From positions 1,110 to 65,109 of the forward strand of contig JAUSIP010000016.1 of the NCBI GenBank assembly GCA_030648005.1: DNA of 64,000 nt, in the 5' to 3' direction. Under the pieces are notes generated by a model. That model worked only from the letters and a program-made list of their open reading frames with translations. It searched no databases and was not told where the DNA came from. Origin of the DNA: a bacterium (GTDB lineage Bacteria > Patescibacteriota > Minisyncoccia > Phycocordibacterales > UBA12445). Both the position numbers and the translations under genes were made by a program. Shown here one piece after another: positions 13,451 to 57,353 of the stretch; positions within the stretch are counted from its first letter, which is position 1, and each line of letters starts with the position of its first letter.

Positions 13451-14674
13451 ATGGAGAGGCTTAAACAAAAATTACCCGATTCGCCCGGAGTTTATTTCTT
13501 TAAGAAAGGAAAGGGTATTTTGTATATCGGCCGGGCTACGTCACTTCAAAGCCGTGTTAGAAGTTACTTTAATAAAGAGACGATAAATTCCCGTGGGGCT
13601 TTTATTGCGGGAATGGTTGCAGAAGCTACTTCGCTAGTTTGCAGACAGACTGATTCTGTTCTAGAGGCGATAATTCTGGAGGCGGAACTCATTAAAAAAT
13701 ACCAACCAAGATTTAATTCTAAAGAGAAAGATAATAAGAGTTTTTATTATATTGTCGTCACGGCTGAAAATTTTCCTAGAGTACTCATGGTTCGGGGTAG
13801 GAATTTAGAGATGAAAGATAATGATTTCAAAATTAAGAAACTTTTTGGCCCTTTCCCATCCGGCACAGAATTGAAGGAGGCACTCCGAGTCATCAGGAAA
13901 CTTTTCCCATTCAGAGATAAATGTTTGCCAAATTCAGGGAGATCTTGTTTTAACCGCCAAATAGATCTATGCCCGGGTGTTTGTATTGGAGAGGTATCTC
14001 GTGTTGAGTATAAAAAGCAGACTAAAAAAATAGAACTATTTTTGTCGGGCAAGAAGAAGACTGTGATCAGCTTACTTAAGAAGGAGATGAATATTTTTGC
14101 GAATAAAAGAGAATTTGAAAGAGCCGAAATTACAAAAAGAAAGATCTTTGCACTCGAACATATACAGGATGTAAGCTTGATAAAGAGAGAGTCGGCAATA
14201 TTACCGGATTTTGGCGAAAAAAATAAAATATTCAGAATAGAAGCATATGATATCGCACATCAGAGCGGGACGAATAATGTCGGGGTGATGGTTGTCTTAG
14301 AGAACAATGAACCCAATAAGGAAGAGTATAGGAAGTTTAAAATAAGAGGGGATTATCCATCTGATGATTTGCGATCATTGCGCGAGGTGTTGGAGAGACG
14401 GCTGAATCATCCCGAGTGGCGCTTTCCTGACTTGATAGTCGTCGACGGAGGCAAACTTCAGGTGGCTGTGGCGGAAGATATAATGAAGCGCGATGGTCTG
14501 CTTATTCCAATTGTTGGTGTAGTCAAAGATGAACATCATAGGCCTAAGAATATTTTGGGAGATGTTGAGATAATTAAAAAATATGAAAGAAAAATACTGC
14601 TGGCCAATAATGAGGCGCATAGCTACGCTATCAATTATTTTAGGAAACTAAGTATTAAGAGTATGAAGGGATAG
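13451..14674 (+). CDS. uvrC: Excinuclease ABC subunit C, short form lacking the C-terminal (HhH)2 region
   Basis: It has a GIY-YIG N-terminus (GVYFFKKGKGILYIGRATSLQSRV), a UVR-like helix (KREFERAEITKRKIFALEHI) and an endonuclease domain (RIEAYDIAH). Length is 407 aa. Confidence 0.85.
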   Translation: MERLKQKLPDSPGVYFFKKGKGILYIGRATSLQSRVRSYFNKETINSRGAFIAGMVAEATSLVCRQTDSVLEAIILEAELIKKYQPRFNSKEKDNKSFYYIVVTAENFPRVLMVRGRNLEMKDNDFKIKKLFGPFPSGTELKEALRVIRKLFPFRDKCLPNSGRSCFNRQIDLCPGVCIGEVSRVEYKKQTKKIELFLSGKKKTVISLLKKEMNIFANKREFERAEITKRKIFALEHIQDVSLIKRESAILPDFGEKNKIFRIEAYDIAHQSGTNNVGVMVVLENNEPNKEEYRKFKIRGDYPSDDLRSLREVLERRLNHPEWRFPDLIVVDGGKLQVAVAEDIMKRDGLLIPIVGVVKDEHHRPKNILGDVEIIKKYERKILLANNEAHSYAINYFRKLSIKSMKG

Positions 14675-14716
14675 ACTTGAAACTTACAGTTTCAGTACCC
14701 GCGATTGGGTTTTTTA
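14675..14716 (+). terminator. uvrC terminator region (two hairpins plus T-run)
   Basis: GAAACT-TAC-AGTTTC, then ACCC-GCGATT-GGGT followed by TTTTTT. Confidence 0.45.
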
Positions 14717-14731
14717 ATTCGCTCCGCTCTT

Positions 14732-14752
14732 AAAAAAGCCTCAATCGGGCTT
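14732..14752 (-). terminator. Putative terminator downstream of tRNA-Leu(CAA)
   Basis: The minus strand reads AAGCC-CGATTGA-GGCTT followed by TTTTTT. Confidence 0.4.
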
Positions 14753-14817
14753 CAAGTCTCTCACAGAAGACACTTAGGTGTCTTCTTCCGCGTCAAAATT
14801 TCACTTCGTTCAATTTG

Positions 14818-14900
14818 TGCCGCGGGAGAGACTTGAACTCTCACGAGGTTGCCCCCGATAGATTTTGAGTCTATTGCGTCTACCATTCCGCCACCGCGGC
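14818..14900 (-). tRNA. tRNA-Leu (anticodon CAA)
   Basis: Acceptor is GCCGCGG/CCGCGGC. Anticodon arm is ATAGA-CTCAAAA-TCTAT. It has a long variable arm and T arm GAGAG-TTCAAGT-CTCTC. Confidence 0.9.
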
Positions 14901-42960: not shown

Positions 42961-44007
42961 ATGAACGTGGCTATTATTGATATTGGTAGCGGGAGTGTTG
43001 GGCTTGCCGGAGTTCTTCTGGAGAAGGATAAGGTACCGATTCTAAAATTCTCAAAGAGAATCGAGCTCACACTTCAGGAGAAGCTGGATCCAGAAAGACT
43101 ACTTCAAGAAAGCTTCACTGCTATAGAGCGAGTTATTGCTGATATGCAAAAAGGTATGGCCCTAGCGCCGTCGTCAGTCTTCTGCTTCTTGTCTCCGCAT
43201 CTCATTGTATCTCAGGCGAGAAATATTATCCTTAACTTTGATAAATCCTCTACAGTAAATTCTCTTGTCATAAACGATGCCGTCAACAGGGAGCTTAAAA
43301 GATTTAGTGCAGGTAATAACAGTGGTGAAGTTGTCATTGAGCACAAGATCATGGGCGTTAAGTTGAATGGCTACGAAACAACCAACCTTAAAGATCGGAT
43401 TGCGAATAGATTAGAGATTTCGATCTTTTTTACACTGGCTCCGGCAGATATATTAAATAAGATCAAGAAGCAGATCTCAAGCTCTTTTCATAACGAACAG
43501 GTGGAATTCCACTCCTTTTCCATTGCCCATTTTGCCATTCTACGAGATATATTTAGGGCTGAACAAAACTTCGCCTTCATTGATATTGGATCTGAGATTA
43601 CTGATGTTTCTCTTGTCAGAGAGGGGGTCATTGAGAAAACTACGTCCTTTCCACTGGGCAAGAACACATTCATTAGATCTATAATGAACAAGATGCAAGT
43701 CAGTGCGCCTGTTGCGTTATCTATAATAAAGAAGGGGGGTGATCTAGTTTCTGTGAGCGAAGAATGGATTACAGCGATAAGGGGTGCGATTGATAGCAAT
43801 AATTTTGAGGGTAAAGTACGGGAGAAGATTTTTATATTAACCGACAAGGACTTTTCTGGAGCTACCTCCGCAATTCTCAATCAACAACTGGAGATCAAAG
43901 AACTAACTTCTACTGATCTAAATAAATTCTGTCAGAATTATAGTGGCGCCGTAGATGACCCATTCCTTATGGTGGCTTCAATATTTGTTAATAAATTGTT
44001 AAACTAA
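42961..44007 (+). CDS. Actin-fold ATPase (FtsA/PilM-like)
   Basis: VAIIDIGSGSVG (phosphate 1) and FAFIDIGSEITDVSL (phosphate 2). Confidence 0.5.
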   Translation: MNVAIIDIGSGSVGLAGVLLEKDKVPILKFSKRIELTLQEKLDPERLLQESFTAIERVIADMQKGMALAPSSVFCFLSPHLIVSQARNIILNFDKSSTVNSLVINDAVNRELKRFSAGNNSGEVVIEHKIMGVKLNGYETTNLKDRIANRLEISIFFTLAPADILNKIKKQISSSFHNEQVEFHSFSIAHFAILRDIFRAEQNFAFIDIGSEITDVSLVREGVIEKTTSFPLGKNTFIRSIMNKMQVSAPVALSIIKKGGDLVSVSEEWITAIRGAIDSNNFEGKVREKIFILTDKDFSGATSAILNQQLEIKELTSTDLNKFCQNYSGAVDDPFLMVASIFVNKLLN

Positions 44008-44011
44008 GATT

Positions 44012-45271
44012 ATGAAAAGAAAAGTTGTTGAAGATCTAATATTTAAAAAGGCGCCCGTCTATCAAATGGACGAAGTCAATGACAACAGGGTGGTGAGTAA
44101 TGGGAACCGAGGCTCCGGAAGAAAGTTTTATGTGTATGCACTTATTGTTATAGCCGGCTCGGTCCTGGTACTTGGCTTGTTTGTACTTTTGTCCTCAACC
44201 TTCTCAAGGGTTTCTGTGATGGTTTTAACGACAAATCGAGAGATTATATTGGATGACCTTGTTCCACTCAACAAAGATGGCGCAGGGGGCGGGATAAAGT
44301 ACGAGATGATGAGTTTGAAGGAAATGGAGTCTGGATATGTTCCTACTAGCGGTAATAAACTCGTGTCTAAGTACGCTACTGGTATTGTGACTATTTACAA
44401 TTCATTTAGCCCCGCGTCCCAAATTTTGGTTGCCGGCACAAGGCTTGAGACCACAGATGGTAAGATCTACAAAATAGACAAAACAGTATCGATCCCAGGC
44501 ATGTCGTCAGTTGCTGTATCTGTTAAGGCCGGAGAAGCGGGCGTAAAATACAATATACCCCCGACGAACTTTACTATTCCAGGCCTTAAAGACAGCCCGA
44601 AGTTTTCGAAGATATATGCTAAATCTGTTAAAGATATTTCCGGAGGCTGGTCCGGGGAATTGAAGGTGGCTTCCTCGGCGGATATCACAAAGACGCGGCT
44701 GAATTTACAGGACAGTCTAAAAAAGAAACTGATCAAGAAGGCTCTAGCGGAAACCCCGAAAGGTTTCTTACTTTGGGAAGATGGGATGCTTATCAGTTTC
44801 AGCGACAACACAATAGACAACTCTTCTTTAATTGGGGCTGATGGAGATAAGATGAATCTCCAGGTGAATGGTGTACTCCGCGCAATAATGATATTAGAAG
44901 ATGATCTTAAAAATTTTATAGTAGCCAAAAAGAAAGCTGAGCTGGTCGGTGGGACTAAGTTTGTTATCGACAATCCAGGCAAACTTAGTTTTAAGATATT
45001 AAATAAGGATAAAATAAACACAGACGGAACAAGCAGCGTTCTTGCAAGGATAACGGGCAAACAATATATAATGTGGGATTTTGATGAAAGTTCTCTTAAG
45101 AATAAACTGAGTGGTGTAAAACGATCTAAATATCAGGATGTTTTCAAGGAGTTCCCGGCGATAGAAGAGGCTGCCGCAGTGTTCTACCCATCATGGGCTT
45201 TCTATTTTCCAATCGACACAAATAGGATAGAAATAGCCTTAGCACCTAAGGAGGGGGTTGACTTAAAATAG
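44012..45271 (+). CDS. Hypothetical membrane-anchored protein (419 aa)
   Basis: It has a single N-terminal TM helix (FYVYALIVIAGSVLVLGLFVLLSS), and its start lies 4 nt after the preceding gene's stop. Confidence 0.5.
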   Translation: MKRKVVEDLIFKKAPVYQMDEVNDNRVVSNGNRGSGRKFYVYALIVIAGSVLVLGLFVLLSSTFSRVSVMVLTTNREIILDDLVPLNKDGAGGGIKYEMMSLKEMESGYVPTSGNKLVSKYATGIVTIYNSFSPASQILVAGTRLETTDGKIYKIDKTVSIPGMSSVAVSVKAGEAGVKYNIPPTNFTIPGLKDSPKFSKIYAKSVKDISGGWSGELKVASSADITKTRLNLQDSLKKKLIKKALAETPKGFLLWEDGMLISFSDNTIDNSSLIGADGDKMNLQVNGVLRAIMILEDDLKNFIVAKKKAELVGGTKFVIDNPGKLSFKILNKDKINTDGTSSVLARITGKQYIMWDFDESSLKNKLSGVKRSKYQDVFKEFPAIEEAAAVFYPSWAFYFPIDTNRIEIALAPKEGVDLK

Positions 45272-48940: not shown

Positions 48941-49357
48941 ATGATGAAAACAGAGACTAAAGGAAAATATTTCGAGGCTGTAGGCAGAAGAAAGACTTCA
49001 ACTGCCAGAGTAAGACTTTACCCTCACGAGTCTACAAAGAACGTTTTTGTAATAAACGGCAAGGATATCAAAGAGTACTTTCCAACAGCTGAGATGAAGT
49101 ACATTGTAGCTTCTCCATTTGAGACATCAGCTACAGTTGCCAAGTATGAGGTTACAGTAGTGGCTACAGGTGGCGGGATACACTCTCAGGCTGAGGCGGT
49201 AAGGCACGGCATCTCAAGAGCCTTGCTTCTGACTGACGGTGAGCTAAGAAAGCTCCTCAAAAAGGCTAAGATGCTCAAGAGAGACCCACGAGCTAAGGAG
49301 CGAAGGAAATTCGGCCTCAAGAAGGCAAGAAAGGCTCCACAGTGGAGCAAGCGATAG
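48941..49357 (+). CDS. rpsI: Ribosomal protein S9
   Basis: GRRKTSTARVRL and the C-terminal KARKAPQWSKR. Confidence 0.95.
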   Translation: MMKTETKGKYFEAVGRRKTSTARVRLYPHESTKNVFVINGKDIKEYFPTAEMKYIVASPFETSATVAKYEVTVVATGGGIHSQAEAVRHGISRALLLTDGELRKLLKKAKMLKRDPRAKERRKFGLKKARKAPQWSKR

Positions 49358-49396: not shown

Positions 49397-49410
49397 TTTG
49401 GCATGAGAAA

Positions 49411-49430
49411 ACCGCCAGAGGTCTGGCGGT
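49411..49430 (-). terminator. Hairpin/terminator of the 49479-49736 gene (CCGCCAG/CTGGCGG motif family)
   Basis: ACCGCCAG-AGGT-CTGGCGGT, with TTTTC following on the minus strand. Confidence 0.55.
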
Positions 49431-49478
49431 TTGGCGGCGGTAAGCAGTAGGTCTGCTTAGTACTTAAAAGAGGAGTGA

Positions 49479-49736
49479 TTAGACGTGCATCCAACCGTTG
49501 TCATCTTCATGGTAAATCCAGCCGAACTTGCCCATCTCACGGACCTCTTCTTCGGACATGTAGAGAACAAACATGTCGAAGTCTCCAACAAAGATACCAG
49601 CCTCGCTGAGGTCTATTTTCTCATCGAGATCAGCGTAGTAATTCTTCAGGATCTGAAGACCACCCAGAACACCATTCTTTTTGCTGGGATCCGATGAGTC
49701 TTCATCAAGAATCTCTACTGCTCGCTTGACGTTCAT
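49479..49736 (-). CDS. Hypothetical small acidic protein (85 aa)
   Basis: It has its own consensus promoter, a GGGAG SD and a terminator. It is Asp/Glu-rich with no recognised motif. Confidence 0.55.
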   Translation of the reverse strand: MNVKRAVEILDEDSSDPSKKNGVLGGLQILKNYYADLDEKIDLSEAGIFVGDFDMFVLYMSEEEVREMGKFGWIYHEDDNGWMHV

Positions 49737-49797
49737 TTTGCTTCTACTCCCGTCTGTTGATTTAGTTGTCGAATAACTCGGCTAATTTCTATCTTCA

Positions 49798-49827
49798 AGT
49801 ATAGCATACTAAATATCAAACTGTCAA
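49798..49827 (-). promoter_or_regulatory. Consensus promoter of the acidic-protein gene
   Basis: The minus strand reads TTGACA (49827-49822), 18 nt, then TATACT (49803-49798). Confidence 0.6.
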
Positions 49828-49900
49828 TAGCAAATACAAAATACCATTATTTTATAAGGGGGATATTTTAATTTTGATTTCAGCAGATTCTATGTGATCA

Positions 49901-50002
49901 CAAGTTACTAAGTCTACTCATCCGCCCAGGGCGGATTGCGTGGACTAAGTACTTGCCGACCCCGACTCACGGTTTTTGTTTTTTAGGAGAGAAAACAAAA
50001 AC
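49901..50002. other. Structured intergenic segment (two long hairpins)
   Basis: CAAGTTACTAAGTCTAC...GTGGACTAAGTACTTG encloses TCCGCC-CAG-GGCGGA. It is followed by GTTTTTGTTTT-TTAGGAGAG-AAAACAAAAAC. Confidence 0.4.
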
Positions 50003-50024
50003 ATCGTTCCGCCTTCATAAAACT

Positions 50025-50049
50025 AAAAAAGTGGAGAAGTCCACTTTTT
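50025..50049 (-). terminator. Terminator of the minus-strand tRNA-Glu transcription unit (bidirectional shape)
   Basis: AAAAAGTGGA-GAAG-TCCACTTTTT lies 13 nt downstream of the tRNA 3' end. Confidence 0.75.
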
Positions 50050-50061
50050 CTTAACGTTTGA

Positions 50062-50133
50062 TGACCCTACAGAGAATCGAACTCTGATTTAAGCCTTGAG
50101 AAGGCTCCGTCCTAACCGTTAGACGATAGGGCC
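50062..50133 (-). tRNA. tRNA-Glu (anticodon CTC)
   Basis: Acceptor is GGCCCTA/TAGGGTC. D arm is GTCT-AACGGTTA-GGAC. Anticodon arm is GAGCC-TTCTCAA-GGCTT. T arm is CAGAG-TTCGATT-CTCTG. Confidence 0.9.
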
Positions 50134-50149
50134 AAATTGTAAACTAACT

Positions 50150-50362
50150 GCGACCAAACTCTGATTTCCTCCTTACAGGAGCGGTACACCTTTCGCACCC
50201 TACGGGGATGCTCAAGGTCTTGCAGTTGGGTCCCCAAGCCCAACCTCACCTCTCGAAGGCCGTGTCCTAACCGATAGTCCCGACCCCACAGGGTCGAGGA
50301 TCCTCGATTTTATGGAGATTTCGCTGTAACGAAATCGTAATAAAATCGGGAACGATAGGGCC
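50150..50362 (-). ncRNA. tRNA-Glu-derived structured RNA or tRNA pseudogene carrying two large hairpin-rich insertions
   Basis: Three blocks match tRNA-Glu (nt 1-11 at 11/11, nt 12-25 at 13/14, nt 39-54 at 13/16). They are separated by 74-nt and ~80-nt self-complementary inserts. The T-arm 3' strand and the acceptor 3' strand are missing. Confidence 0.45.
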
Positions 50363-50389
50363 GTTACTGTGAAACTATTCTAATATAAC

Positions 50390-50417
50390 TTGCCAAGAAT
50401 GTAAAATATGATAGTAT
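50390..50417 (+). promoter_or_regulatory. Putative promoter of the nuclease gene
   Basis: TTGCCA-16 nt-TAGTAT, followed by tandem AAAGGAGG SD motifs. Confidence 0.4.
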
Positions 50418-50446
50418 GAGAAAGGAGGTTTGTAAAGGAGGTCGTT

Positions 50447-50863
50447 TTGCCCCGCAAGAACAATGAGGAGCTCCGAAGGAAGGATCTCCCTAGTGGTAAA
50501 AAAAAGACCCGTTCACGCGGATGCCGAAGCAGAAAACCCAACAATAAGGTTAACCGCGGGAGATATTGGGAGGAGCGAATGGCTAAGCTCCTGGACGATA
50601 ATAACATCAAGTACACAGCCAATAGATCATTTAAAACGGTTAATAAGAAAGGATATAGAAACCATAGGGAAGTTGATTTCTGCCTCCATGAAGATCTAAG
50701 TGTCTTGCGACGAGAACATCCGATCCGGTACATTGAAGTTAAGAGTGGAAAACTAGATAGAGACCAGCAGGAGGATCTTCGTAATGCTGGAATTTATACC
50801 GACATTATCATCCCCCTAGACATAATCTATTGGGAAATACATGGTCTTTCTTTGCAGAAATAA
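50447..50863 (+). CDS. PD-(D/E)XK nuclease-fold protein with a ~45-aa Lys/Arg-rich N-terminal tail
   Basis: It has a TTG start 5 nt after GGAGG. REVDFCL (Asp) and YIEVKSGK (E-x-K) fit the PD-(D/E)XK motif, preceded by a GRYWEERMAKLL helix. Confidence 0.5.
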   Translation: MPRKNNEELRRKDLPSGKKKTRSRGCRSRKPNNKVNRGRYWEERMAKLLDDNNIKYTANRSFKTVNKKGYRNHREVDFCLHEDLSVLRREHPIRYIEVKSGKLDRDQQEDLRNAGIYTDIIIPLDIIYWEIHGLSLQK

Positions 50864-50876
50864 ATCTAGAACTACC

Positions 50877-50899
50877 CCGGCTACTTAGCCGGATTTTTT
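50877..50899 (+). terminator. Rho-independent terminator
   Basis: CCGGCT-ACTT-AGCCGG, then A and TTTTTT. Confidence 0.75.
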
Positions 50900-50938
50900 C
50901 TTGCCACGCCGATAAGGCGGGTATGCTATAATTATCCA

Positions 50939-51574
50939 ATGAACTTTATAGACACGTTTCTTCATATCGATACATACTTGGCCGGGTTGACATCTGACTA
51001 CGGCGTATATATCTATGCACTACTCTTCCTGGTTATCTTCTTAGAGACTGGGATTGTAGCTACACCCTTCCTACCCGGAGATTCCCTACTCTTTGCTGCC
51101 GGAGCGATAGCAGCTTCGGCTGGCGGATTGAATATCTGGATCTTATTAGCTGTTATAGCTTCCGCATCCATAATTGGAGATTCCGTCAACTACACGATTG
51201 GTAGTTATCTGGGAGCAAGGGCATTTGGAGATCCTAATTCACAGATATTCAAGAAGGAGTATTTAGATCGCGCACAAGAATTTTACAGTAAATATGGCGA
51301 CAGGGCGGTGGTATTGGGGCGCTTCTTCCCAATCATTAGGACATTTGTTCCATTTGTTGCTGGTGTCAGTAATATGAAATATGATAAGTTTGTCTTTTTT
51401 AATATAACAGGCGGAATACTCTGGACACTAGTTTTCTGCTTCGGCGGATACCTCTTCGGCAATATCCAGATAGTGAAAGACAATTTCACTGCCGTTATCT
51501 TTGGTATTATTATTATTTCTCTCCTACCAGGGATTTACCATCTGTTTGCAAATAGATTAAGAATACGTGAGTAA
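50939..51574 (+). CDS. DedA family (VTT domain) membrane protein
   Basis: FLPGDSLLFAAG and RFFPIIRTFVPFVAG. Confidence 0.85.
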   Translation: MNFIDTFLHIDTYLAGLTSDYGVYIYALLFLVIFLETGIVATPFLPGDSLLFAAGAIAASAGGLNIWILLAVIASASIIGDSVNYTIGSYLGARAFGDPNSQIFKKEYLDRAQEFYSKYGDRAVVLGRFFPIIRTFVPFVAGVSNMKYDKFVFFNITGGILWTLVFCFGGYLFGNIQIVKDNFTAVIFGIIIISLLPGIYHLFANRLRIRE

Positions 51575-51647
51575 GCATACATTGACTATTTAAGCCAAAA
51601 GACTTAACTTGAATACGGATGTTTTTAGTCTTTGACTCAAGGGAGTT

Positions 51648-52139
51648 TTGCAGATGCTTATCGTCGTACCTGAATTCAAAGAAGTGAAGGGTCAACTGGT
51701 CTTCCTTGCTGGCCCCATACAAGGCGCGGAAGACTGGCAGAGTTTTGCTATTAATTTTTTCTCAAAGAGATGTCCGTCGTTGGATATAGCTACCCCGAGG
51801 GGTAATTATAAAGATCTTAACTTCGATTACGATAAGCAAGTAGACTGGGAATCCTTTTACCTCGCGATGGCATCTAAGAGTGCTGGAATTCTCTTCTGGC
51901 TAGCAAAAGAGAAGACGCATTACTGCGACAGGTCTTATGCACAAACAACAAGATTTGAACTGGCTGAATGGGTGATAAAAAACACCATCAATCCGTTTGT
52001 AAATCTTTTCATTGGCATCGAGCCAGGATTTACCGGCGCGAAATATATTAGAAGGCGACTTAGCCGGGAGTGTCCGGAAATTGTAATACACGAGACCCTC
52101 GAGGCGCTCTGCGAAGAGGTGATCTTGAATGTCCGTTAA
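51648..52139 (+). CDS. Nucleoside 2-deoxyribosyltransferase-like fold protein
   Basis: VFLAGPIQGAEDWQ and AQTTRFELAEW (catalytic-Glu-type motif) resemble PF05014/PF15891 as I recall them. A GGGAG SD is present. Confidence 0.5.
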   Translation: MQMLIVVPEFKEVKGQLVFLAGPIQGAEDWQSFAINFFSKRCPSLDIATPRGNYKDLNFDYDKQVDWESFYLAMASKSAGILFWLAKEKTHYCDRSYAQTTRFELAEWVIKNTINPFVNLFIGIEPGFTGAKYIRRRLSRECPEIVIHETLEALCEEVILNVR

Positions 52140-52494
52140 ACCCGAGCTTGATTTCGATAGACCGCGACAAGTTACAAAAATCCCAGTATTTCCTGAGAAT
52201 TCAGCAGGACTCAATCGAGGTAGTGTACTCGAGATTACATCGCTCATGCCGGAAGCCGCTCAGTTGGGAGGGCTAAAAGTCGGAAAGAAGATTATGCTGG
52301 GCTATGATGGCACACATATCCGCTCGGGGCCACTTATCTGGCTGGTAGAAAAGATCATTGAAGAGATAGCCTACGGCTGGTGGAAAGTTATCGAGGTGCC
52401 ATTGCCCGACTTCTCAAATGCGGAATTCAACAAGGAATTCGCCTTGATTATCGAACATCTAGAACTTGTACCAGTCATCAAGCTGGATTCCTAA
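52129..52494 (+). CDS. Hypothetical protein (121 aa), translationally coupled to the NDT-like gene
   Basis: It overlaps the upstream CDS by 11 nt. I recognise no motif. Confidence 0.5.
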   Translation: MSVKPELDFDRPRQVTKIPVFPENSAGLNRGSVLEITSLMPEAAQLGGLKVGKKIMLGYDGTHIRSGPLIWLVEKIIEEIAYGWWKVIEVPLPDFSNAEFNKEFALIIEHLELVPVIKLDS

Positions 52495-52510
52495 TCAGAT
52501 CACACTCTTT

Positions 52511-52537
52511 ACCCCCGCTTAGCGGGGGATTTTTTTT
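52511..52537 (+). terminator. Rho-independent terminator
   Basis: CCCCCGC-TTA-GCGGGGG followed by a T-run. Confidence 0.85.
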
Positions 52538-52557
52538 ATGAAATTTGATAGACTCCA

Positions 52558-53097
52558 GTGGTGACCATACAAATGATCCACCATACAATAAAGCATGTTG
52601 ATGTCTTCCCGGAGGAGGCTTGTGTTGAGCCTGCATTTTATAGCACTAGGCGCACTGCGAAGGGAATCGTCCTTGATTCGCATAGAAAAGTTGCCTTAGT
52701 GTCTAAAAAAGGGAGTGGTTTCTACTTCCTGCCTGGCGGTGGAATTGAGGAGGGGGAGTCGACAGAGGAAGCGCTTAAAAGGGAGTGTGCTGAAGAGATG
52801 GGGCAAAGTATAAAGATCGAAAGAAAGTTCGCGACAACTTCTGAATACCGCGCCAAGTCTGCAGAATTATATGAGACATCATGCTTTATAGCCCGCTTAT
52901 CAGAAGACGGACAAGATTTGGAGGTCATACCCGACGATAGCTTGCTTGGTATGGAGGTACTCTGGATAGGTAAGCCGGAAGCGATAGAACTATTAAAAAA
53001 ACAGGCTAAAAAAATAACTGATAAAACAGATAACTATTACAGCCGTAAATTTAATACTCTCCGCGATCTATACTTCATAGATAAAAGTTTGATATAA
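52558..53097 (+). CDS. Nudix hydrolase
   Basis: Nudix box GGGIEEGESTEEALKRECAEEMG. Confidence 0.85.
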   Translation: MVTIQMIHHTIKHVDVFPEEACVEPAFYSTRRTAKGIVLDSHRKVALVSKKGSGFYFLPGGGIEEGESTEEALKRECAEEMGQSIKIERKFATTSEYRAKSAELYETSCFIARLSEDGQDLEVIPDDSLLGMEVLWIGKPEAIELLKKQAKKITDKTDNYYSRKFNTLRDLYFIDKSLI

Positions 53098-53100
53098 ATA

Positions 53101-53124
53101 AAAGGCCTCCAGTTTGCGGAGGCC
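53101..53124. terminator. Bidirectional hairpin between convergent genes
   Basis: GGCCTCC-AGTTTGC-GGAGGCC. Confidence 0.55.
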
Positions 53125-53143
53125 AGCCAGATTTTCTACTCAC

Positions 53144-53503
53144 TTAATTTTCTTTACGTGGCTTCTTTGGTTTATTTAGGAAGAGCGACCAACATTGAAC
53201 CGGCGTGATCCCTAGCGTCTCTGCTAACTTTATGATACCCATCGTAAACGCGGTATTAATATATCTATCGTACAAGAACCGGCGACCAAAAACATTGATG
53301 TACTCTTGCATATTTATACCATACTGCTTGCTTAATATTAGAGTGAGATCCTCTTCATTTTTCGGCAAGGTAGCCGTGAACTTAGTGTTGAAGTCCGCTA
53401 GTCTCTCTTTGACTTCATTAGTATCGAGTTCAATATATTTGAGCTCCTCGAAGGCTTCATCCAGCTCCTTCTTTGTGTAGGGCGAATTTATTATACCCAC
53501 CAC
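53144..53503 (-). CDS. Hypothetical protein (119 aa), possible C-terminal HTH
   Basis: It has a GTG start preceded by AGGGGGA. MGIIKLAETLGITPVQ looks HTH-like. The C-terminus is basic. Confidence 0.45.
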   Translation of the reverse strand: MVGIINSPYTKKELDEAFEELKYIELDTNEVKERLADFNTKFTATLPKNEEDLTLILSKQYGINMQEYINVFGRRFLYDRYINTAFTMGIIKLAETLGITPVQCWSLFLNKPKKPRKEN

Positions 53504-53596
53504 TCATCCCCCTTTTTTTTATAAACGTCCAATTATCTGACATAATCATAGCCTTTTTTCTTAAAATAATGTAGTCTCTAACACGGAGGTGTTGAC

Positions 53597-54631
53597 ATGA
53601 AAATCGAAGAAGTGGCGAAGATTGACATGGCTAAACTGATCAACGCCACAGGGCTCACAGAAGAAGAGGTACTCACAGCACTTAGAGTGTCTAATCCAAA
53701 ACGATGGCTTAGGGATATGAAGGCAGCGAAGACTATTGGGGAATCCCGACGAGTCTATGATGCGGCGAGCGATGATCTGGAGAACAAAGATCCGGTCAGA
53801 AAGAAGATACTCTACATGCACGAAGCAAGGTGCCAGGCTGTCGTTGATCAAAAAAAGATTGACTCTGTCGAAGACTTGTATGAAATAGTTAATCGTGGAA
53901 TTGTAGATGGCCCAGCATTCACTAAGGCTGCATGGCTTCTCGTCGCATGCATAAAACAACTAGGCCAGTTCGCAAGACTCTATCGTCAACTCATCGAAAA
54001 GAAAAGCACCAATGATGCCTTGATCACAACTGTGGCCGGTGAATTCATCGCTTCATGCATGCTTGAACTGGAGAAGCCGACGCTTACAATGGAAGAGCTC
54101 TATGGTATCCGTGCATACTCATCTTATCTTCCACCTACCCATCCTGTCCGGCATTATGCAAACAAAAAATTCAAGATTGCCCTCGGGAAATTCCTGTCAG
54201 AACCGCGTGTGCTTACTGAACTCACAACTGCTCGGGGCTGGGCTAGAGAAAAACGGGAATTTTCCCGTATAGACTCCCTGATATTCAAGATCGTGGTGAA
54301 GGAGTGTGAAAACAACCCCGTCTTCGCTAATGCTTGTGAAGTTCTAGTCAGATATTTTAATCTGATCGGCCCGAATTCAGCTCAGCGTAAATGCCTGACT
54401 ATACTTGCTGGAAGAGCCCAAACTTTCGATGAGCTTCGGCATGTCTTCGATCGCTACTCCCATGGAAGCTACTTGGATAATCTCCGCCGAAAGATGATTG
54501 ATAAGCTAGTGGCCCTGGCTTCTACGGTTGAACGGCTCATGTTTATTTATGAGAGAGGAGGATCTGGGCTGGTGACGTCTGCTAACAAGAGAAAGATCAT
54601 CCAAAAGTTGGCAAAGATGTACACCAAATAA
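53597..54631 (+). CDS. Hypothetical all-helical protein (344 aa)
   Basis: CGGAGGTG lies 6 nt before the ATG. I recognise no family. Confidence 0.55.
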   Translation: MKIEEVAKIDMAKLINATGLTEEEVLTALRVSNPKRWLRDMKAAKTIGESRRVYDAASDDLENKDPVRKKILYMHEARCQAVVDQKKIDSVEDLYEIVNRGIVDGPAFTKAAWLLVACIKQLGQFARLYRQLIEKKSTNDALITTVAGEFIASCMLELEKPTLTMEELYGIRAYSSYLPPTHPVRHYANKKFKIALGKFLSEPRVLTELTTARGWAREKREFSRIDSLIFKIVVKECENNPVFANACEVLVRYFNLIGPNSAQRKCLTILAGRAQTFDELRHVFDRYSHGSYLDNLRRKMIDKLVALASTVERLMFIYERGGSGLVTSANKRKIIQKLAKMYTK

Positions 54632-54640
54632 GTAAGAAGA

Positions 54641-54667
54641 AACCCCCTGCGGAAATCGCGGGGGGTT
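54641..54667. terminator. Bidirectional terminator
   Basis: CCCCCTGCG-GAAAT-CGCGGGGGG, a 9-bp stem. Confidence 0.7.
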
Positions 54668-54676
54668 ATTAATTTT

Positions 54677-55162
54677 TTAACGATAGGATGTTGACAACAG
54701 GCTCATTCCCCAGTAGTCGTGGAAACCGAGAGGCTCGCCATCTTCATATCTGTAGATTTCTTCGCGGCCATTGAAATTAGTGAAGTCGAAGAGACGCCCC
54801 TGGTTGAAGTAGATGAACGAATCTCCCTTATAGTACGCCGGGCCACGACCACCGATGAACTGCCCGGTTTCGTATGTCTTTCGCAACACAGCCCTTAGAA
54901 AAGGGATCGCCTCTTTTGAGTAAGCCCCACCATAGTTCATTATCCAAATCGGCCGATCCTTGAACCAGATTGTTGTCGTGCCGGCCGACCTCTCTTCTCC
55001 TGGAATTGCGCAATACTGATCCTGAAGACGGAAGTCGCCGTCTCGATAATGAATGGCCAGGAAGTCTGGCATATCGTGAACCTGTATCTCTTCCGAAAGA
55101 CCACTAGCCAAACATGACGCCATCGCTCTGAAGAAGAATTCGCGAATCTTACTGATGTCCAC
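54677..55162 (-). CDS. DUF5680-like protein
   Basis: AGGAGGTG lies 4 nt before GTG 55162 (the track start at 55246 has no SD). The pattern YRDGDFRLQDQY...IWIMNYGG..FLR.VL resembles DUF5680 as I recall it. Confidence 0.45.
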   Translation of the reverse strand: MDISKIREFFFRAMASCLASGLSEEIQVHDMPDFLAIHYRDGDFRLQDQYCAIPGEERSAGTTTIWFKDRPIWIMNYGGAYSKEAIPFLRAVLRKTYETGQFIGGRGPAYYKGDSFIYFNQGRLFDFTNFNGREEIYRYEDGEPLGFHDYWGMSLLSTSYR

Positions 55163-55296
55163 AGGACACCTCCTATTGCTCCATTTTTTTAAAATCAAAT
55201 CTATCGGCGATATTAACATAGAGTCAACCACCACGCAATATGACAATAAACCGGGAATTTCTACTATTCAACAATGAGTGGTAAAATAATAAGACA

Positions 55297-56262
55297 ATGT
55301 TGTTCTACTTTTATATTTTTATTTTTCTAGTCGCGATAGTATCGCTCGGGGTGTCGAGTGGGATGGTGGCACGTGCCTTGCTGAAACTCGGTAGGATTGT
55401 AGGGCTCAACGAATGCGTGCTTTCTTTTATGCTACTTGGGATCATAACCTCCTTGCCCGAAATATTTATCGCAACAGCATCCGTTATCACAAACAATCCA
55501 CTCTTATCGATTGGAAATATTATAGGTGCCAACTTCACCAATATCACTTTGGCTATCGGACTAGTGGCATATTTGTCTGGCGGAATAGATCTCTCTGGGC
55601 AAGTATCCAAGAGGGTTTTCTGGATATCATTCATGCTAGTTCTAATGCCTTCTTTTTTGGTTCTTGGAGGAGGGTTGTCTCGCTTCGACGGATTACTTCT
55701 ATGTTTAATGTTCCTAGCCTACATAATCGTCTTTTCTTATGATGGACAGTTTCTAGAAAAGTCAGCACCACATGTACCCTACGGTGTACACTACTTCTCT
55801 GAGGTTTATCCAAGCTTGATTAATCTTACCCTAGGACTACTAATACTTGTACTATCCTCAATTTTTATCATACTATTCACTGCTGGACTTACTAGCTATT
55901 GGCCCATCGACTTAATACTCTTTAGCACAGTTGTCCTCGGACTTGCCACCACGCTCCCTGAGCTCTTCTTTGGTATGAGAGGTGCAATAATGCAACACTC
56001 TTCGCTGGCAATGGGTAATATACTCGCATCAACCGTCTTTAATAGCACAGTCATCATCGGTCTACTCGCAATAGTATCGCCGACGGCCACGAATTCTTTA
56101 ACTGCCGGCCCAGTCATCCTAACTTCATCCTTCACCTTTTTAGCATTTATCTTACTATCGGTATTCTCTTACACCGGCTCTAGAATAAACCGCACGGAGG
56201 GGGTATTATTAATGTCGTTGTACTTTTTATTCATCACATCTGCTTCCGCACTTTATTTATAA
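55297..56262 (+). CDS. Ca2+/Na+ antiporter (CaCA family, YrbG-like)
   Basis: It has two alpha-repeats: GIITSLPEIFIA...GNIIGANFTNITLAIG and GLATTLPELFFG...GNILASTVFNSTVIIG. Confidence 0.85.
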   Translation: MLFYFYIFIFLVAIVSLGVSSGMVARALLKLGRIVGLNECVLSFMLLGIITSLPEIFIATASVITNNPLLSIGNIIGANFTNITLAIGLVAYLSGGIDLSGQVSKRVFWISFMLVLMPSFLVLGGGLSRFDGLLLCLMFLAYIIVFSYDGQFLEKSAPHVPYGVHYFSEVYPSLINLTLGLLILVLSSIFIILFTAGLTSYWPIDLILFSTVVLGLATTLPELFFGMRGAIMQHSSLAMGNILASTVFNSTVIIGLLAIVSPTATNSLTAGPVILTSSFTFLAFILLSVFSYTGSRINRTEGVLLMSLYFLFITSASALYL

Positions 56263-57353
56263 TGACTGCTATCTATATAATTTTAGGAATAGTTTTTGGC
56301 GCCATCGTCGCTCTTTTTATATTTTATTCACTGAATAAGAAGGTTGAACCTTCTTCCGATAATAATCCTCTGCTCTTGATCCAGAACCAGCTCAATAATC
56401 TTTCTAAAACATTAGACCAGCGCTTGGCAGACTCTGAAAGACACCTCAACGAATCCGTGACCGGCGCGCACCGTGCCATGCAGAACCAGATAGGGGAGTC
56501 GTACAAGATCGTCACTGATCTGACTGAGAAGTTGACGCGCCTCGATGAGACCAACAAACAGGTTGTTGGCTTCGCTGACCAGCTACAGTCACTTCAAGAC
56601 ATTTTGAAGAATCCAAAACAGCGTGGGATACTTGGCGAGTATTACCTAGAGACAGTGCTTAAGAACGTCATGCCACCAGGTAGCTATGAGATGCAGTACA
56701 AGCTTGGACAAGACGAAGATGGTGCCGACTTAATACCCGATGCGGTTGTCTTTGTGAAAGATAAAATCATACCAATAGACTCCAAATTCTCACTCGAAAA
56801 CTACAACAGGATAGTCGCCGAGCGTGACCCGGTAGAGCGCGAGAAGTTGGAAAAACTTTTTGTGAATGACTTAAAAAATCGTATTTCAGAAACAGCTAAG
56901 TATATTAAACCTAGTGCCGGTACTATGGACTTCGCTTTCATGTTCATACCGCATGAGGCCATTTACTATGATCTACTAATCAACAAGATCGGCGCCTTAA
57001 AAGAAGATACGGAGTCGCTGATCCAGCGCGCCGCTTCGAAGTATAAGGTTATCATCGTTTCGCCGACATCTTTCCTAGCCTACCTACAAACCGTCCTCCA
57101 GGGCTTGAAGGCGATGCAGATTGAGGAACAGGCCAAAGATATTGTGAAGCGAGTAGGGGAGCTGACCACACACCTCAAGACTTATATGGAGAAACATGAG
57201 AAGCTCGGCAAGTCGCTCGCCACTGTCGTCAACCAGTACACCGATTCCTCCAAGGAGTTCAAGAAAATAGATAAGGATTTGATGCGTATCACCGAAGCAG
57301 ACGTCGCCCTCGACTACGAACCGCTCTCACTCGACAAGCCAGAGATGGAATAG
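56262..57353 (+). CDS. rmuC: DNA recombination protein RmuC
   Basis: It has an N-terminal TM helix, a coiled-coil and a nuclease-like core (RGILGEYYLETVL...PDAVVFV..IPIDSKF). Confidence 0.85.
   Translation: MTAIYIILGIVFGAIVALFIFYSLNKKVEPSSDNNPLLLIQNQLNNLSKTLDQRLADSERHLNESVTGAHRAMQNQIGESYKIVTDLTEKLTRLDETNKQVVGFADQLQSLQDILKNPKQRGILGEYYLETVLKNVMPPGSYEMQYKLGQDEDGADLIPDAVVFVKDKIIPIDSKFSLENYNRIVAERDPVEREKLEKLFVNDLKNRISETAKYIKPSAGTMDFAFMFIPHEAIYYDLLINKIGALKEDTESLIQRAASKYKVIIVSPTSFLAYLQTVLQGLKAMQIEEQAKDIVKRVGELTTHLKTYMEKHEKLGKSLATVVNQYTDSSKEFKKIDKDLMRITEADVALDYEPLSLDKPEME

Follow-up and report, generated by a model that had tools for sequence, protein, structure and literature searches.

A clade-specific inherited gene neighbourhood between rpsI and rmuC in a member of the Paceibacteria, and small structured elements adjoining its tRNA-Glu gene

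Within the 64-kb stretch of DNA analysed here (the window), a block of mostly unfamiliar genes surrounds a tRNA-Glu gene at 49.4-55.3 kb, and a sequence-only reading suggested that this region is an old integration hotspot. The question is whether the 5.8-kb block is a mobile island that entered at the tRNA or an inherited part of the chromosome. All open reading frames listed in that reading were recovered in place (Table 1). The block lies where two widely conserved blocks meet, namely alaS...rpsM-rpsK-rpsD-rpoA-rplQ-rplM-rpsI on the left and rmuC-rplU-recR-dnaB on the right. The right block is preceded by a CaCA antiporter gene (55297-56262; Pfam), the stop codon of which overlaps the RmuC start at base 56262. 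The hairpin terminators claimed for the block are borne out: terminator-like hairpins are enriched at 47-58 kb (24 versus 9.7 +/- 3.2 expected), the strongest ones being located 3' of p344, p121, p119, the nuclease and the tRNA, and the block genes look like independent transcription units.

Table 1. Features of the rpsI-rmuC region and a related element elsewhere in the window
Feature	Coordinates	Strand	Basis or remark
Diverged module-A-like element	14674..14757	-	covariance model R2, 21 bits, E 0.1
rpsI	48941..49357	+	Pfam; left anchor, final gene of its block
85-aa acidic ORF	49479..49736	-	GC3 0.56, z about 2
Module B	49894..50020	-	covariance model R1, 60.6 bits, E 1e-16
Terminator-like hairpin AAAAAGTGGACTTCTCCACTTTTTT	50025..50049	-	3' of tRNA-Glu
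tRNA-Glu(CUC), intact	50060..50134	-	ARAGORN; Rfam tRNA, 60.3 bits
Element X ("partial tRNA copy")	50135..50362	-	sequence reading; roughly 230 nt
Short tRNA copy within X	50157..50167		variable loop and T-stem 5' strand
Module A core within X	50163..50226	-	covariance model R2, 67.2 bits, E 4e-12
74-nt structured insert in X	50278..50351	-	in D-stem of the tRNA-like 5' part
Promoter-like site	50375..50405	-	TTTACA-N17-TAGAAT; upstream of X
Small PD-(D/E)XK-like nuclease	50447..50863	+	divergent from the tRNA locus
DedA/VTT membrane protein	50939..51574	+	Pfam, E 5e-23
NDT-like protein	51648..52139	+	PF15891, E 6e-5, weak, under cut-off
121-aa partner (p121)	52129..52494	+	start overlaps NDT-like gene by 11 nt
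Nudix hydrolase	52558..53097	+	Pfam, E 5e-11
119-aa protein (p119)	53144..53503	-	no family
344-aa protein (p344)	53597..54631	+	fast-evolving, taxonomically restricted family
DUF5680 protein	54677..55246	-	Pfam, E 4e-9
CaCA antiporter and RmuC	55297..57353	+	right anchor

The block was compared with three close relatives, L164, L168 and L169 (RpsI 79-88% and RmuC 81-87% identical to those of the window), each represented by a single metagenome contig; both flanks are covered by L164 alone, and the depth of conservation given here is that of three genomes. The gene order in L164 is rpsI, DedA, nuclease, tRNA-Glu ... p119, NDT-like, partner, Nudix, p344 ... CaCA, RmuC, rplU, recR, dnaB. The L169 contig reads p119 ... 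NDT-like, partner, Nudix, a gene for an NTP-transferase, two p344 copies ... CaCA, RmuC, so that the CaCA-RmuC adjacency is kept in both genomes, and that of L168 reads rpsI, DedA, nuclease, promoter, tRNA start. The tRNA-nuclease-DedA unit (roughly 1.7-2.1 kb) is inverted in the window compared to the relatives. Only the 85-aa ORF (no tblastn match in any of the three), the DUF5680 gene (no match in L164 or L169, where other genes occupy that junction) and two small non-coding elements were not found in the close relatives. Whole-cassette differences are nevertheless seen even at this distance, with swaps at a few junctions. The proposal that DedA alone is core-like was accordingly too narrow: DedA does belong to the conserved part, but so does most of the block. 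These comparisons show that the block has been inherited vertically within one clade of Paceibacteria (ultra-small CPR bacteria), to which this gene neighbourhood is specific, and that the backbone of the block, consisting of DedA, the nuclease, tRNA-Glu(CUC), p119, the NDT-like protein and its partner, Nudix, p344, CaCA and RmuC, was present in the common ancestor with L164; the NDT-to-RmuC part is also common to L169 and the rpsI-to-tRNA part to L168.

Farther away, the picture changes. Synteny upstream of rpsI is retained in 44-81 of 81 loci and nothing is common downstream; of 80 rmuC loci, 26-36 have rplU, recR or dnaB on the 3' side. No block gene adjoins rpsI in any of about 160 more distant relatives, and only weak, partial or far-off matches are found near rmuC (CaCA in L138, Nudix in L092). 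The flanks and the linkage of tRNA-Glu to rmuC survive and the intervening content is unrelated: when 88 proteins from the tRNA-Glu-rmuC interval of relatives with tRNA-Glu upstream of rmuC were compared together with 10 window proteins, 78 of these 98 matched none of the others.

Such variation, the cassette turnover among close relatives, the several orphan or lineage-restricted genes and the nearby tRNA are what could be expected of an old island inserted at tRNA-Glu by a tyrosine recombinase, with the integrase and att repeats subsequently lost and the composition drifted to that of the host. This scenario is very unlikely, the shared backbone order in L164 and L169 weighing heavily against it. 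The composition of the block is native: its tetranucleotide distance is 0.0093, a value equalled or exceeded by 84% of same-size windows; its GC content is 44.1%; and in codon usage 45% of gene runs of the same size are no less deviant. The 3' end of tRNA-Glu occurs once in the 64 kb with up to 3 mismatches allowed, that is, there is no distal repeat, and tRNA-derived repeats were not found inside the block. Furthermore, the block is situated 5' of the tRNA, further upstream than its promoter, whereas islands of the integrase type occupy the 3' side, and the tRNA-nuclease-DedA unit inverts as a part of the chromosome, not as an island boundary. No integrase or transposase families were detected among the block proteins in Pfam, NCBIfam, PHROG and PADLOC scans. 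The earlier statements that mobility genes and clear direct repeats of the tRNA 3' end are lacking thus hold, and the hotspot claim survives in part: the neighbourhood is flexible and insertion-like elements with att-like repeats do occur at the tRNA locus (see below), but the 5.8-kb block as a mobile island is rejected, its composition being native and its order largely conserved at genus or family depth.

What the genes of this neighbourhood encode bears on a second proposal, namely that the block, or the run of NDT-like, partner and Nudix genes, is an anti-phage or nucleotide-conflict system and the region a defence island. NDT-like and Nudix domains are known from nucleotide-centred conflict systems, and the three genes are adjacent in three genomes: the partner directly follows the NDT-like gene in L164 (41% identical) and L169 (47%), Nudix follows the partner (75% identical in both), and the NDT-like protein itself is 70% and 58% identical, respectively. 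In PADLOC, the Nudix protein hits candidate PDC-S07 (E 9e-12), but the match is confined to residues 52-109, the generic Nudix box, and the nine other proteins scanned gave no hit, so that the suggested defence check yielded no other defence family. The NDT-like protein has 607 homologues, most of those listed containing PF15891; the named ones come from metagenomic genomes of Parcubacteria and archaea, including Nanoarchaeota, and one adjoins an HD phosphohydrolase and housekeeping genes, all of which fits salvage in nucleotide auxotrophs. A defence function is therefore highly improbable, and the most plausible role of the run is to salvage or clean up nucleotides in a symbiont auxotrophic for them.

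Among the remaining proteins, DedA scores 254.7 bits, over the cut-off, with NCBIfam PRK10847 and is 70-71% identical in L164 and L168. The small nuclease (138 aa counted from a TTG start, 94 aa in the annotation) shows only weak matches (TPD, E 0.013; PHROG homing endonuclease, E 7e-4) and yielded just 2 hits in a search of 5.8 billion proteins; its homologues in the same position are 44% (L164) and 55% (L168) identical, and the L168 alignment spans query residues 3 to 115, thus including the N-terminal extension. The 85-aa, 121-aa, 119-aa and 344-aa proteins matched no Pfam, NCBIfam or PHROG family. Homologues of p119 (28-29% identical) lie elsewhere within the neighbourhood in L164 and L169. 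Those of p344 are 28% identical in L164 and 46% and 26% in the tandem copies of L169; among 1.84 billion representatives, p344 has four matches, including itself and a marginal one (E 1.7e-4), and a word-indexed search returned only the self-match.

The partial tRNA copy noticed beside tRNA-Glu is real, and it is not a scar of the block but part of a roughly 230-nt element, X, which L164 lacks and which is found again at tRNA genes elsewhere. X consists of a copy of nt 1-34 of tRNA-Glu (interrupted in the D-stem by a 74-nt hairpin), module A, a short repeat of the variable loop and 5' T-stem strand, and a 23-nt spacer. Homologues of X in L084, L128, L145 and L165 break from the tRNA at the same point, all five X-type copies leaving their tRNA exactly after nt 34; D-stem inserts of 21-70 nt occupy the same position in L142, L145, L117 and L165, with none in L084 and L128. 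In L164, the sole close relative with a fully assembled tRNA locus, the tRNA is 98.7% identical to that of the window and the promoter abuts it; both L164 and L168 keep a promoter, TTTAC(T/A)-N17-TAGTAT, immediately upstream of tRNA-Glu. X is an insertion/deletion polymorphism between a conserved tRNA promoter and the tRNA. The promoter-like site of the window would drive X and tRNA-Glu, and possibly also module B, which is located 40 nt downstream of the tRNA. A hairpin much like that between the tRNA and B follows tRNA-Glu in L084, L143 and L145.

Modules A and B have no Rfam match, and both possess covarying folds. Module A comprises a CCTT/AAGG helix, a GA/GA internal loop, a variable hairpin, GUGUAC and a hairpin with a CUGUAAG loop (93.3% pairing versus 73.8% shuffled; 42 cells changed on both sides versus 12.9). 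Module B forms two hairpins, each with a 3-bp GNC closing helix, the first containing a GGA/GA internal loop (pairing in 92.2% of cells, versus 64.2% after shuffling and 38-49% in slid controls, with changes on both sides in 150 cells versus 43.8). Both modules recur beside tRNA genes and rpsI in related genomes; copies outside the model-building set adjoin tRNA-Ala, Gln, Phe, Arg and Glu(UUC), and rpsI. Of the 26 copies downstream of a tRNA, 16 carry brackets made from the 3' end of that tRNA, one copy inverted and the other direct. The diverged module-A-like element of the window, 60 nt downstream of tRNA-Leu(CAA), is likewise preceded by an inverted copy and followed by a partial direct copy of the tRNA-Leu 3' end (bracket scores 12 and 11 versus a 95% null of 6). 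In L034 and L073, B lies between direct repeats (about 44-50 nt), each including the rpsI terminator, and modules form tandem arrays in L091, L134 and L165. X belongs to an undescribed family of small structured elements adjoining tRNA genes.

Least probable of the readings considered is that X is a decaying tandem duplicate of tRNA-Glu with random insertions. X does retain tRNA nt 1-34 and a short T-stem segment without the 3' half, and ARAGORN does not call it even with the intron and tmRNA searches switched on. However, its core outside the tRNA-like parts has been kept, with compensatory changes, in genomes of only 60-78% RmuC identity, is found also away from tRNA-Glu (behind tRNA-Gln or tRNA-Leu, or at loci lacking any nearby tRNA), and scores 60-75 bits in module A matches elsewhere; the break after nt 34 is, moreover, identical in five genomes. 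Group I introns of Patescibacteria that interrupt tRNA-Asn and tRNA-Asp at position 35/36, self-splice and are followed by the 3' exon (PMC13011429) resemble X in belonging to the same phylum, breaking the anticodon loop and being missed by standard tRNA finders. Unlike these introns, X breaks at 34/35, lacks a 3' exon of its own and has a short core (about 85-120 nt); Rfam intron models gave no match to it, even with E values up to 10 admitted.

The small modules, and not the gene block, share features with islands integrated in tRNA genes by tyrosine recombinases through anticodon- or T-loop crossover: direct repeats that correspond to the T-loop-to-3'-end segment or to nt 1-34 ending in the anticodon loop, presence or absence between relatives, and tandem arrays. 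They differ in their small size (about 100-250 bp) and lack of an integrase gene, in the duplication by X of the 5' and not the 3' part of the tRNA, and in the inverted target copy that many of them also carry. REP/BIME, MITEs, integron attC sites and the forked-hairpin attP of CTX phage are multi-copy, intergenic and hairpin-based, and the stem of a CTX-like hairpin imitates the target in the chromosome. The modules may be comparable in being multi-copy, intergenic and located at 3' ends of genes, with structure conserved more than sequence, and possibly in mimicking the target; they lack sequence similarity to any of these, show no apparent link to RAYT, IntI or Xer, and have long (about 12-50 nt), target-derived flanking repeats.

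With moderate confidence, A and B are best viewed as miniature integrated or otherwise mobile elements, or remnants thereof. Such elements would target DNA encoding stem-loops (the anticodon arm, the T-arm with the acceptor end, the rpsI terminator) and leave target-derived repeats, recombination between which could expand or remove modules. Some observations run against mobility: no recombinase or transposase is linked to the modules; the brackets vary with the local tRNA, although a classical element would have fixed ends; and the B copy of the window has no bracket. A clearly less probable, although appreciable, alternative is that X and B are not mobile DNA but cis-acting RNAs of the tRNA-Glu transcript, in which decoy tRNA halves or minihelix-like structures compete for pairing with the halves of the tRNA itself and so control its folding, processing or stability, or else that they are stable tRNA-like small RNAs. 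Because X lies between promoter and tRNA, it must be co-transcribed; tRNA-Glu with A before it and B after it is seen again in L084, L145 and the distant L165 (UUC tRNA); bracketing copies that track each cognate tRNA would be expected if pairing with the tRNA matters; and the GA/GA internal loops may resemble protein-binding motifs. The strong covariation includes many G-T pairs on the sense strand, which are as consistent with an RNA transcript as with a DNA site folded in single-stranded form. Conversely, X and B are both absent from L164 and from most tRNA-Glu loci surveyed, and B also from L169 (which has no tRNA-Glu in its 16 kb), so that they are dispensable; B lies past a terminator-like hairpin; and the tandem arrays and the copies behind duplicated rpsI terminators look like insertion dynamics.

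As an explanation of the whole locus, a fast-evolving inherited neighbourhood, with the mini-elements at the tRNA as a separate matter, is quite likely. The region would change by ordinary processes: lineage-restricted proteins appear to diverge fast (28-47% identity versus 79-88% for core proteins), the tRNA-nuclease-DedA unit is inverted in the window, and 1-4 genes would have been gained or lost at three junctions (upstream of the NDT-like gene, Nudix/p344 and p344/CaCA). Recent gain of single cassettes is compatible with the data for the DUF5680 gene and the 85-aa ORF, since neither has a counterpart in the relatives and the GC3 of both is slightly high (z about 2). In its conserved flanks (the rpsI operon and rmuC-rplU-recR-dnaB), content that varies with phylogenetic distance, cassette gain and loss at fixed junctions and many lineage-restricted genes, the locus resembles plasticity zones. 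It differs from them in the lack of mobility genes, compositional contrast and defence content, and in being mostly conserved within the clade, and thus behaves as clade-specific core rather than as strain-level accessory DNA.

The 5.8-kb block between rpsI and the CaCA antiporter gene, which the sequence-only reading took for an old tRNA-linked integration hotspot without mobility genes, is in our assessment, held with good confidence, an ordinary flexible neighbourhood conserved within the clade rather than a tRNA-linked island. All ORFs listed in that reading are present (NCBI locus tags Q7S19_032xx). The assignments of DedA, Nudix, DUF5680, CaCA and RmuC and a weak NDT-like domain are supported by Pfam/NCBIfam, the small nuclease yields only weak TPD and PHROG homing-endonuclease matches, and the 85-, 121-, 119- and 344-aa proteins match no family in Pfam, NCBIfam or PHROGs. 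No paralogues of the block proteins were found elsewhere in the window, and sequence searches of solved structures with the nuclease, the 344-aa protein (p344) and the NDT-like protein gave no useful match. The block genes have the appearance of separate units, and the strong hairpin terminators reported for this area were recovered, with 24 terminator-like hairpins between 47 and 58 kb versus 9.7 expected, the strongest ones 3' of block genes. Two starts are candidates for the nuclease ORF; in the long form, the N-terminal extension aligns, from residue 3, with the homologue in the related locus L168, and the public record (P0122, NCBI/Logan) gives a 94-aa form.

Coordinates of the features discussed (L numbers denote loci of related genomes)
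Feature	Genome	Coordinates	Strand	Remarks
Element downstream of tRNA-Leu	window	14660-14816	minus	inverted tRNA-Leu 3' end copy, split by a hairpin (GACGCGG..GTGAGAGACTTGAA); then the core below; then partial direct copy (AGTCTATCCC)
Module-A-like core of this element	window	14674-14757		diverged, weak; CUGUAA hairpin
tRNA-Leu(CAA)	window	14817-14900
Two conserved hypothetical genes	window	44012-45271; 42961-44007		between alaS and infA-rpsM
Unit B - tRNA-Glu - X - nuclease - DedA	window	~49.75-51.65 kb		inverted relative to L164 and L168
Corresponding unit	L164	5420-6817
Corresponding unit	L168	1-1291
Module B	window	49894-50020	minus	40 nt past tRNA-Glu
tRNA-Glu(CUC)	window	50060-50134	minus
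Assembly breaks	window organism; L168	~50090-50337; position 1		independent Logan assemblies
Element X	window	50362-50135	minus	parts 1 to 6 below
X part 1	window		minus	GGCCCTATCGT = tRNA nt 1-11
X part 2	window		minus	structured insert, 74 nt
X part 3	window		minus	copy of tRNA nt 12-34
X part 4	window		minus	GAGAGGTGAG, hairpin, conserved core (module A)
X part 5	window		minus	AAATCAGAGTT = variable loop and T-stem 5' strand of tRNA
X part 6	window		minus	23-nt spacer
Module A	window	50163-50226	minus	within X
Promoter TTTACA-N17-TAGAAT	window	50405-50375	minus	followed by X
Start region of the nuclease ORF (two candidate starts)	window	50447-50569		long form begins with TTG at 50447
NDT-like gene (PF15891)	window	51648-52139
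p344 gene	window	53597-54631
Tandem p344-like genes	L169	10001-12095		46% and 26% identical to p344
Glycosylase-like gene	L084	8105-8479		MRVWDIHPKHLCRKHLL...; downstream of tRNA-Glu and module B
Truncated glycosylase-like remnant	L164	6820-6950		directly after tRNA-Glu
Four module B copies	L165	16469-17058		between convergent tRNA-Phe and tRNA-Arg
Carriers of the ~150-aa gene	L084, L101, L104, L111, L115-L117, L128, L134, L140, L141, L143, L145			between tRNA-Glu and rmuC

The source organism is represented by a metagenome genome of the Paceibacteria/Parcubacteria (CPR), and its best RpsI matches among the GTDB species representatives are only 57-71% identical, too distant for synteny; the decisive relatives were found via homologues of the block proteins. 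At the distant level, 80 RpsI-anchored loci share an upstream block of alaS, two conserved hypothetical genes, rpsM, rpsK, rpsD, rpoA, rplQ, rplM and rpsI. Genes of this left block are kept in 44-81 of 81 loci and those of the right block in 26-36 of 80. The two hypothetical genes are found in 44-57 of the 81 related loci, and one of them shows a weak Baseplate_J match. Within 10 kb downstream of rpsI, none of the 80 RpsI-anchored loci contains the block genes, CaCA or RmuC, and in two of them rplU-recR-dnaB lies 6-8 kb downstream of rpsI, with grpE, dnaK, dnaJ and cysS in between. The second conserved block, rmuC-rplU-recR-dnaB, emerged from 80 RmuC-anchored metagenome loci; 21 of these have a tRNA-Glu no more than 10 kb from rmuC, mostly with the CUC anticodon and mostly on the other strand, and in 19 of the 21 it is located upstream of rmuC, at 0.7-9.8 kb. 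A conserved gene of about 150 aa, by eye YqeY/GatB-like, is present in the tRNA-Glu-rmuC interval of 13 of these 19 loci, where it usually adjoins rmuC on the opposite strand; tblastn gave no match for it in the 64-kb window, in which rmuC adjoins CaCA instead. Among 98 proteins compared (88 from the interval and 10 from the window), 78 have no match within the set. Since the left and right blocks are kept and the content between them is unrelated, the region at this depth joins two conserved blocks, and what lies between them varies freely, the pattern of a flexible region between conserved core blocks. The distant pattern alone fits an island as well as general gene-order decay and cannot separate the two.

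Three closer genomes, L164, L168 and L169, were reached through homologues of the block proteins. In L164 (79% identity for RpsI, 85% for RpoA, 81% for RmuC and 86% for DnaB), rpsI is followed by a 206-aa gene, DedA(-), nuclease(-), tRNA-Glu(+), a pyrimidine-dimer glycosylase-like remnant, a 58-aa gene, ParA-like, FUR, Band7, p119-like(-), that is, a homologue of the 119-aa protein, NDT-like, its partner, Nudix, p344-like, a 238-aa gene(-), Prok-RING, CaCA, RmuC, acetyltransferase, rplU, recR and dnaB. L169 (RmuC 87%) carries a metal-efflux cluster, then NDT-like, partner, Nudix, NTP_transf_2, two tandem p344-like genes, 267-aa(-) and 115-aa genes, CaCA and RmuC; in L168 (RpsI 88%), rpsI is followed by a convergent DedA, the nuclease, the conserved promoter and the first 29 nt of tRNA-Glu, where the contig ends. 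This shared order implies that the backbone of the block was inherited within the clade. Between the window and L164, the proteins are 71% (DedA), 75% (Nudix), 70% (NDT-like), 60% (CaCA), 44% (nuclease), 41% (121-aa partner), 28% (p119) and 28% (p344) identical. The tRNA-nuclease-DedA unit is inverted in the window compared with L164 and L168, in both of which DedA is convergent with rpsI, and no inverted repeats were seen at the presumed breakpoints. Cassettes were gained or lost at three junctions between the window and the close relatives, in which the 85-aa ORF, the DUF5680 gene, element X (a partial tRNA copy just 5' of tRNA-Glu) and module B (a structured element 3' of it) were not found. 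A pyrimidine-dimer DNA glycosylase-like gene, recognized by eye in L084 and truncated in L164, is absent from the window.

The features expected of an island are lacking as well. The tetranucleotide distance of the block from the window mean is 0.0093, a deviation equalled or exceeded in 84% of same-size windows; its codon-usage distance is 0.563, with 45% of same-size contiguous gene runs at least as deviant; GC content is 44.1%, and GC3 is 0.48 versus 0.46 in the rest. The 85-aa ORF and the DUF5680 gene have a slightly high GC3 (0.56, z about 2), and rplM and rmuC are higher still. Recent horizontal transfer was rejected: tetranucleotides, GC, codon usage and GC3 gave no signal, and the two genes that lack a counterpart in the close relatives reach only z about 2. 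As the sequence-only reading had observed, no integrase or recombinase family is represented among the block proteins (Pfam, PHROGs, NCBIfam, PADLOC). Patterns of 16 and 20 nt from the tRNA-Glu 3' end occur once in the 64 kb with up to three mismatches, no tRNA repeat was found within the block, and all block genes except the 85-aa ORF sit on the 5' side of the minus-strand tRNA-Glu, upstream of the promoter. No empty site was found: L164 and L169 carry the backbone, and L168 carries the rpsI-DedA-nuclease-tRNA part. A tRNA-integrated island thus fails on integrase, 3'-end repeat, side of the tRNA, composition and empty site in relatives. A defence island was likewise rejected, the only PADLOC match being that of a generic Nudix box to PDC-S07, with nothing specific to defence and no other known or candidate defence protein. 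The sequence-only reading regarded gene order conserved across distant relatives, with indistinguishable composition, as the mark of a stable core region; this largely holds at genus/family depth. Distant relatives share the flanks only.

The "unrecognisable" genes of the block are fast-evolving, taxonomically restricted families. One of them is p344, a fast-evolving gene confined to this lineage: the search of 1.84 billion representative proteins returned four matches, including the query and a marginal one (E 1.7e-4), and a word-indexed search returned only p344 itself, whereas full HMMER combined with synteny recovered homologues that are 26-47% identical. Tandem copies occur in L169. The NDT-like protein has more than 600 homologues (41-71% identical), and those with a name belong to metagenome genomes of Parcubacteria and of archaea, Nanoarchaeota among them, a distribution that suggests a trait common to ultra-small symbionts or gene exchange among them. 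The NDT-like, partner and Nudix genes are adjacent in three genomes, the partner start overlapping the NDT-like gene by 11 nt, and in L165, a Parcubacteria relative, an NDT-like homologue follows an HD phosphohydrolase. We infer that this conserved run serves nucleotide salvage or clean-up in a nucleotide auxotroph rather than defence.

The partial tRNA copy is a separate matter. X is followed by the intact tRNA-Glu and then by a terminator-like hairpin at 50025-50049. The promoter abuts the tRNA in L164 and L168, so that X represents an insertion/deletion polymorphism with direct repeats of the tRNA 5' part at its borders. Homologues of X lie 5' of tRNA-Glu in L084, L128, L145 and the distant L165 (there with a UUC anticodon), and in all five genomes with X the likeness to the tRNA ends at precisely the same point, after nt 34 within the anticodon. 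One D-stem position is occupied by hairpin inserts of 21-74 nt in five genomes and by none in L084 and L128. No further copies of X were detected by blastn in the window or the rpsI-anchored loci, and ARAGORN in intron and tmRNA modes reported the intact tRNA only. A group I intron, for which a U-G pair is expected at the splice site, was rejected: X is too small, the 3' exon/acceptor strand is missing, the U-G pair is not conserved in the sequences, and no Rfam intron matched the window region (E up to 1) or five loci that carry homologous elements (E up to 10). Published tRNA introns of Patescibacteria are located at position 35/36 of Asn and Asp (PMC13011429). Identity as tmRNA, RNase P RNA or T-box was rejected in the absence of Rfam or ARAGORN matches, the elements being, moreover, multi-copy. 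Independent Logan assemblies of the window's organism and of L168 break inside the tRNA-Glu/X locus, as would fit repeated tRNA-derived sequence or population heterogeneity.

Two structured modules are recognizable around this tRNA. Module A, the core of X, consists of AAGAC, a CYTK/MARG helix, a GA/GA internal loop, a variable hairpin, GUGUAC and a hairpin with a CUGUAAG loop. With a covariance model of ten seed copies, the window copy reaches 67.2 bits, and non-seed copies after tRNA-Gln (L089, L091) are recovered as well. Module B comprises GAAGRCGGA, a hairpin, GAGUCGGGGUCGCG, a second hairpin and UGUGAC; its window copy scores 60.6 bits (E 1e-16), and across 2.1 Mb of related loci the model yields 42 matches (E up to 1), non-seed copies among them; about 25 of the matches exceed 30 bits. 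Pairing is conserved in 93.3% of cells for module A (73.8% in shuffles, 36-51% in slid controls) and 92.2% for module B (64.2% and 38-49%), with 42 versus 12.9 and 150 versus 43.8 cells, respectively, changed on both sides. Neither module matches an Rfam 15 family, five loci having been searched at E up to 10. A same-strand tRNA gene (Glu, Gln, Leu, Lys, Ala, Arg, Phe) is no more than 400 nt away from 31 of the 45 strong copies, and four more come directly after rpsI. Module B occurs in 2-5 copies within 7-21 kb of contig in L042, L134, L145 and L165, L091 has two module A copies, and the window contains a single B, a single A and a weak A-like copy. In recurring several times per genome with the fold kept, the modules resemble dispersed structured repeats (REP/MITE-like). 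Both modules are absent from L164; L169, searched for module B, lacks it and has no tRNA-Glu in its 16 kb. The weak A-like copy belongs to a second tRNA-flanking element, downstream of tRNA-Leu. These tRNA-associated modules are real and undescribed in the resources searched.

What the modules are is less certain; that A and B, including the arrangement X - tRNA-Glu - B, form an undescribed Patescibacteria class of either miniature mobile elements or cis-acting tRNA-half mimics is a tentative proposal that we consider rather unlikely. Neither reading has a counterpart in Rfam, and tRNA-linked Patescibacteria elements were not found in the literature searched. Among the 26 copies located 3' of a tRNA, 16 are preceded by an inverted copy of that tRNA's T-arm and 3' end and followed by a direct copy of the 3' end (bracket scores 10-20; the 95% null does not exceed 8). 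Direct repeats of about 44-50 nt that include the stop codon and terminator of rpsI flank module B in L034 and L073. The brackets stem from the target and not from the element. In the L165 cluster, some B copies carry 3' end copies of the respective tRNA. Repeats of the X type stop within the anticodon loop, those of the downstream type start within the T-loop, and others span a terminator hairpin; symmetric, stem-loop-encoding DNA segments are the sites used by site-specific recombinases, which suggests that the tRNA locus behaves as an insertion site. To this extent the proposed hotspot survives, although the inserted DNA is a 100-250-nt element and not the 5.8-kb block. Miniature elements of this kind would integrate into stem-loop-encoding DNA (anticodon arm, T-arm, terminators) and, in doing so, would copy the target in direct and inverted orientation. 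Among the loci covered, no recombinase was seen linked to the modules, and the brackets match each local tRNA. Alternatively, X and B could be cis-acting RNAs that influence how the tRNA folds or is processed, either as decoy tRNA halves or as minihelix mimics. Co-transcription from the conserved promoter, the recurrence of the order A - tRNA-Glu - B and sense-strand G-T pairs favour this reading; the tandem arrays in L091, L134 and L165 and the absence of the modules from the closest relative with the locus assembled weaken it. A phage origin of module B was rejected: 14-mer matches in viral contigs are due to chance, given model scores below 20 bits. Module A has no match in viral contigs, and no true module copy was present among the viral contigs retrieved by exact sequence patterns.

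For CPR genomes, these results caution that a run of unrecognisable genes beside a tRNA need not be an island: this block is inherited, clade-specific and fast-evolving, and word-based homology searches overlook its relatives, so that p344 seemed an orphan. The NDT-like, partner and Nudix genes are a candidate nucleotide-salvage module of ultra-small symbionts. The tRNA-associated modules can be taken for tRNA pseudogenes by tRNA finders and may add to assembly breaks at tRNA loci. If mobile, they would provide a compact system for studying DNA insertion at stem-loop targets, in genomes poor in classical mobile elements; if RNAs, they would represent a new layer of tRNA regulation.
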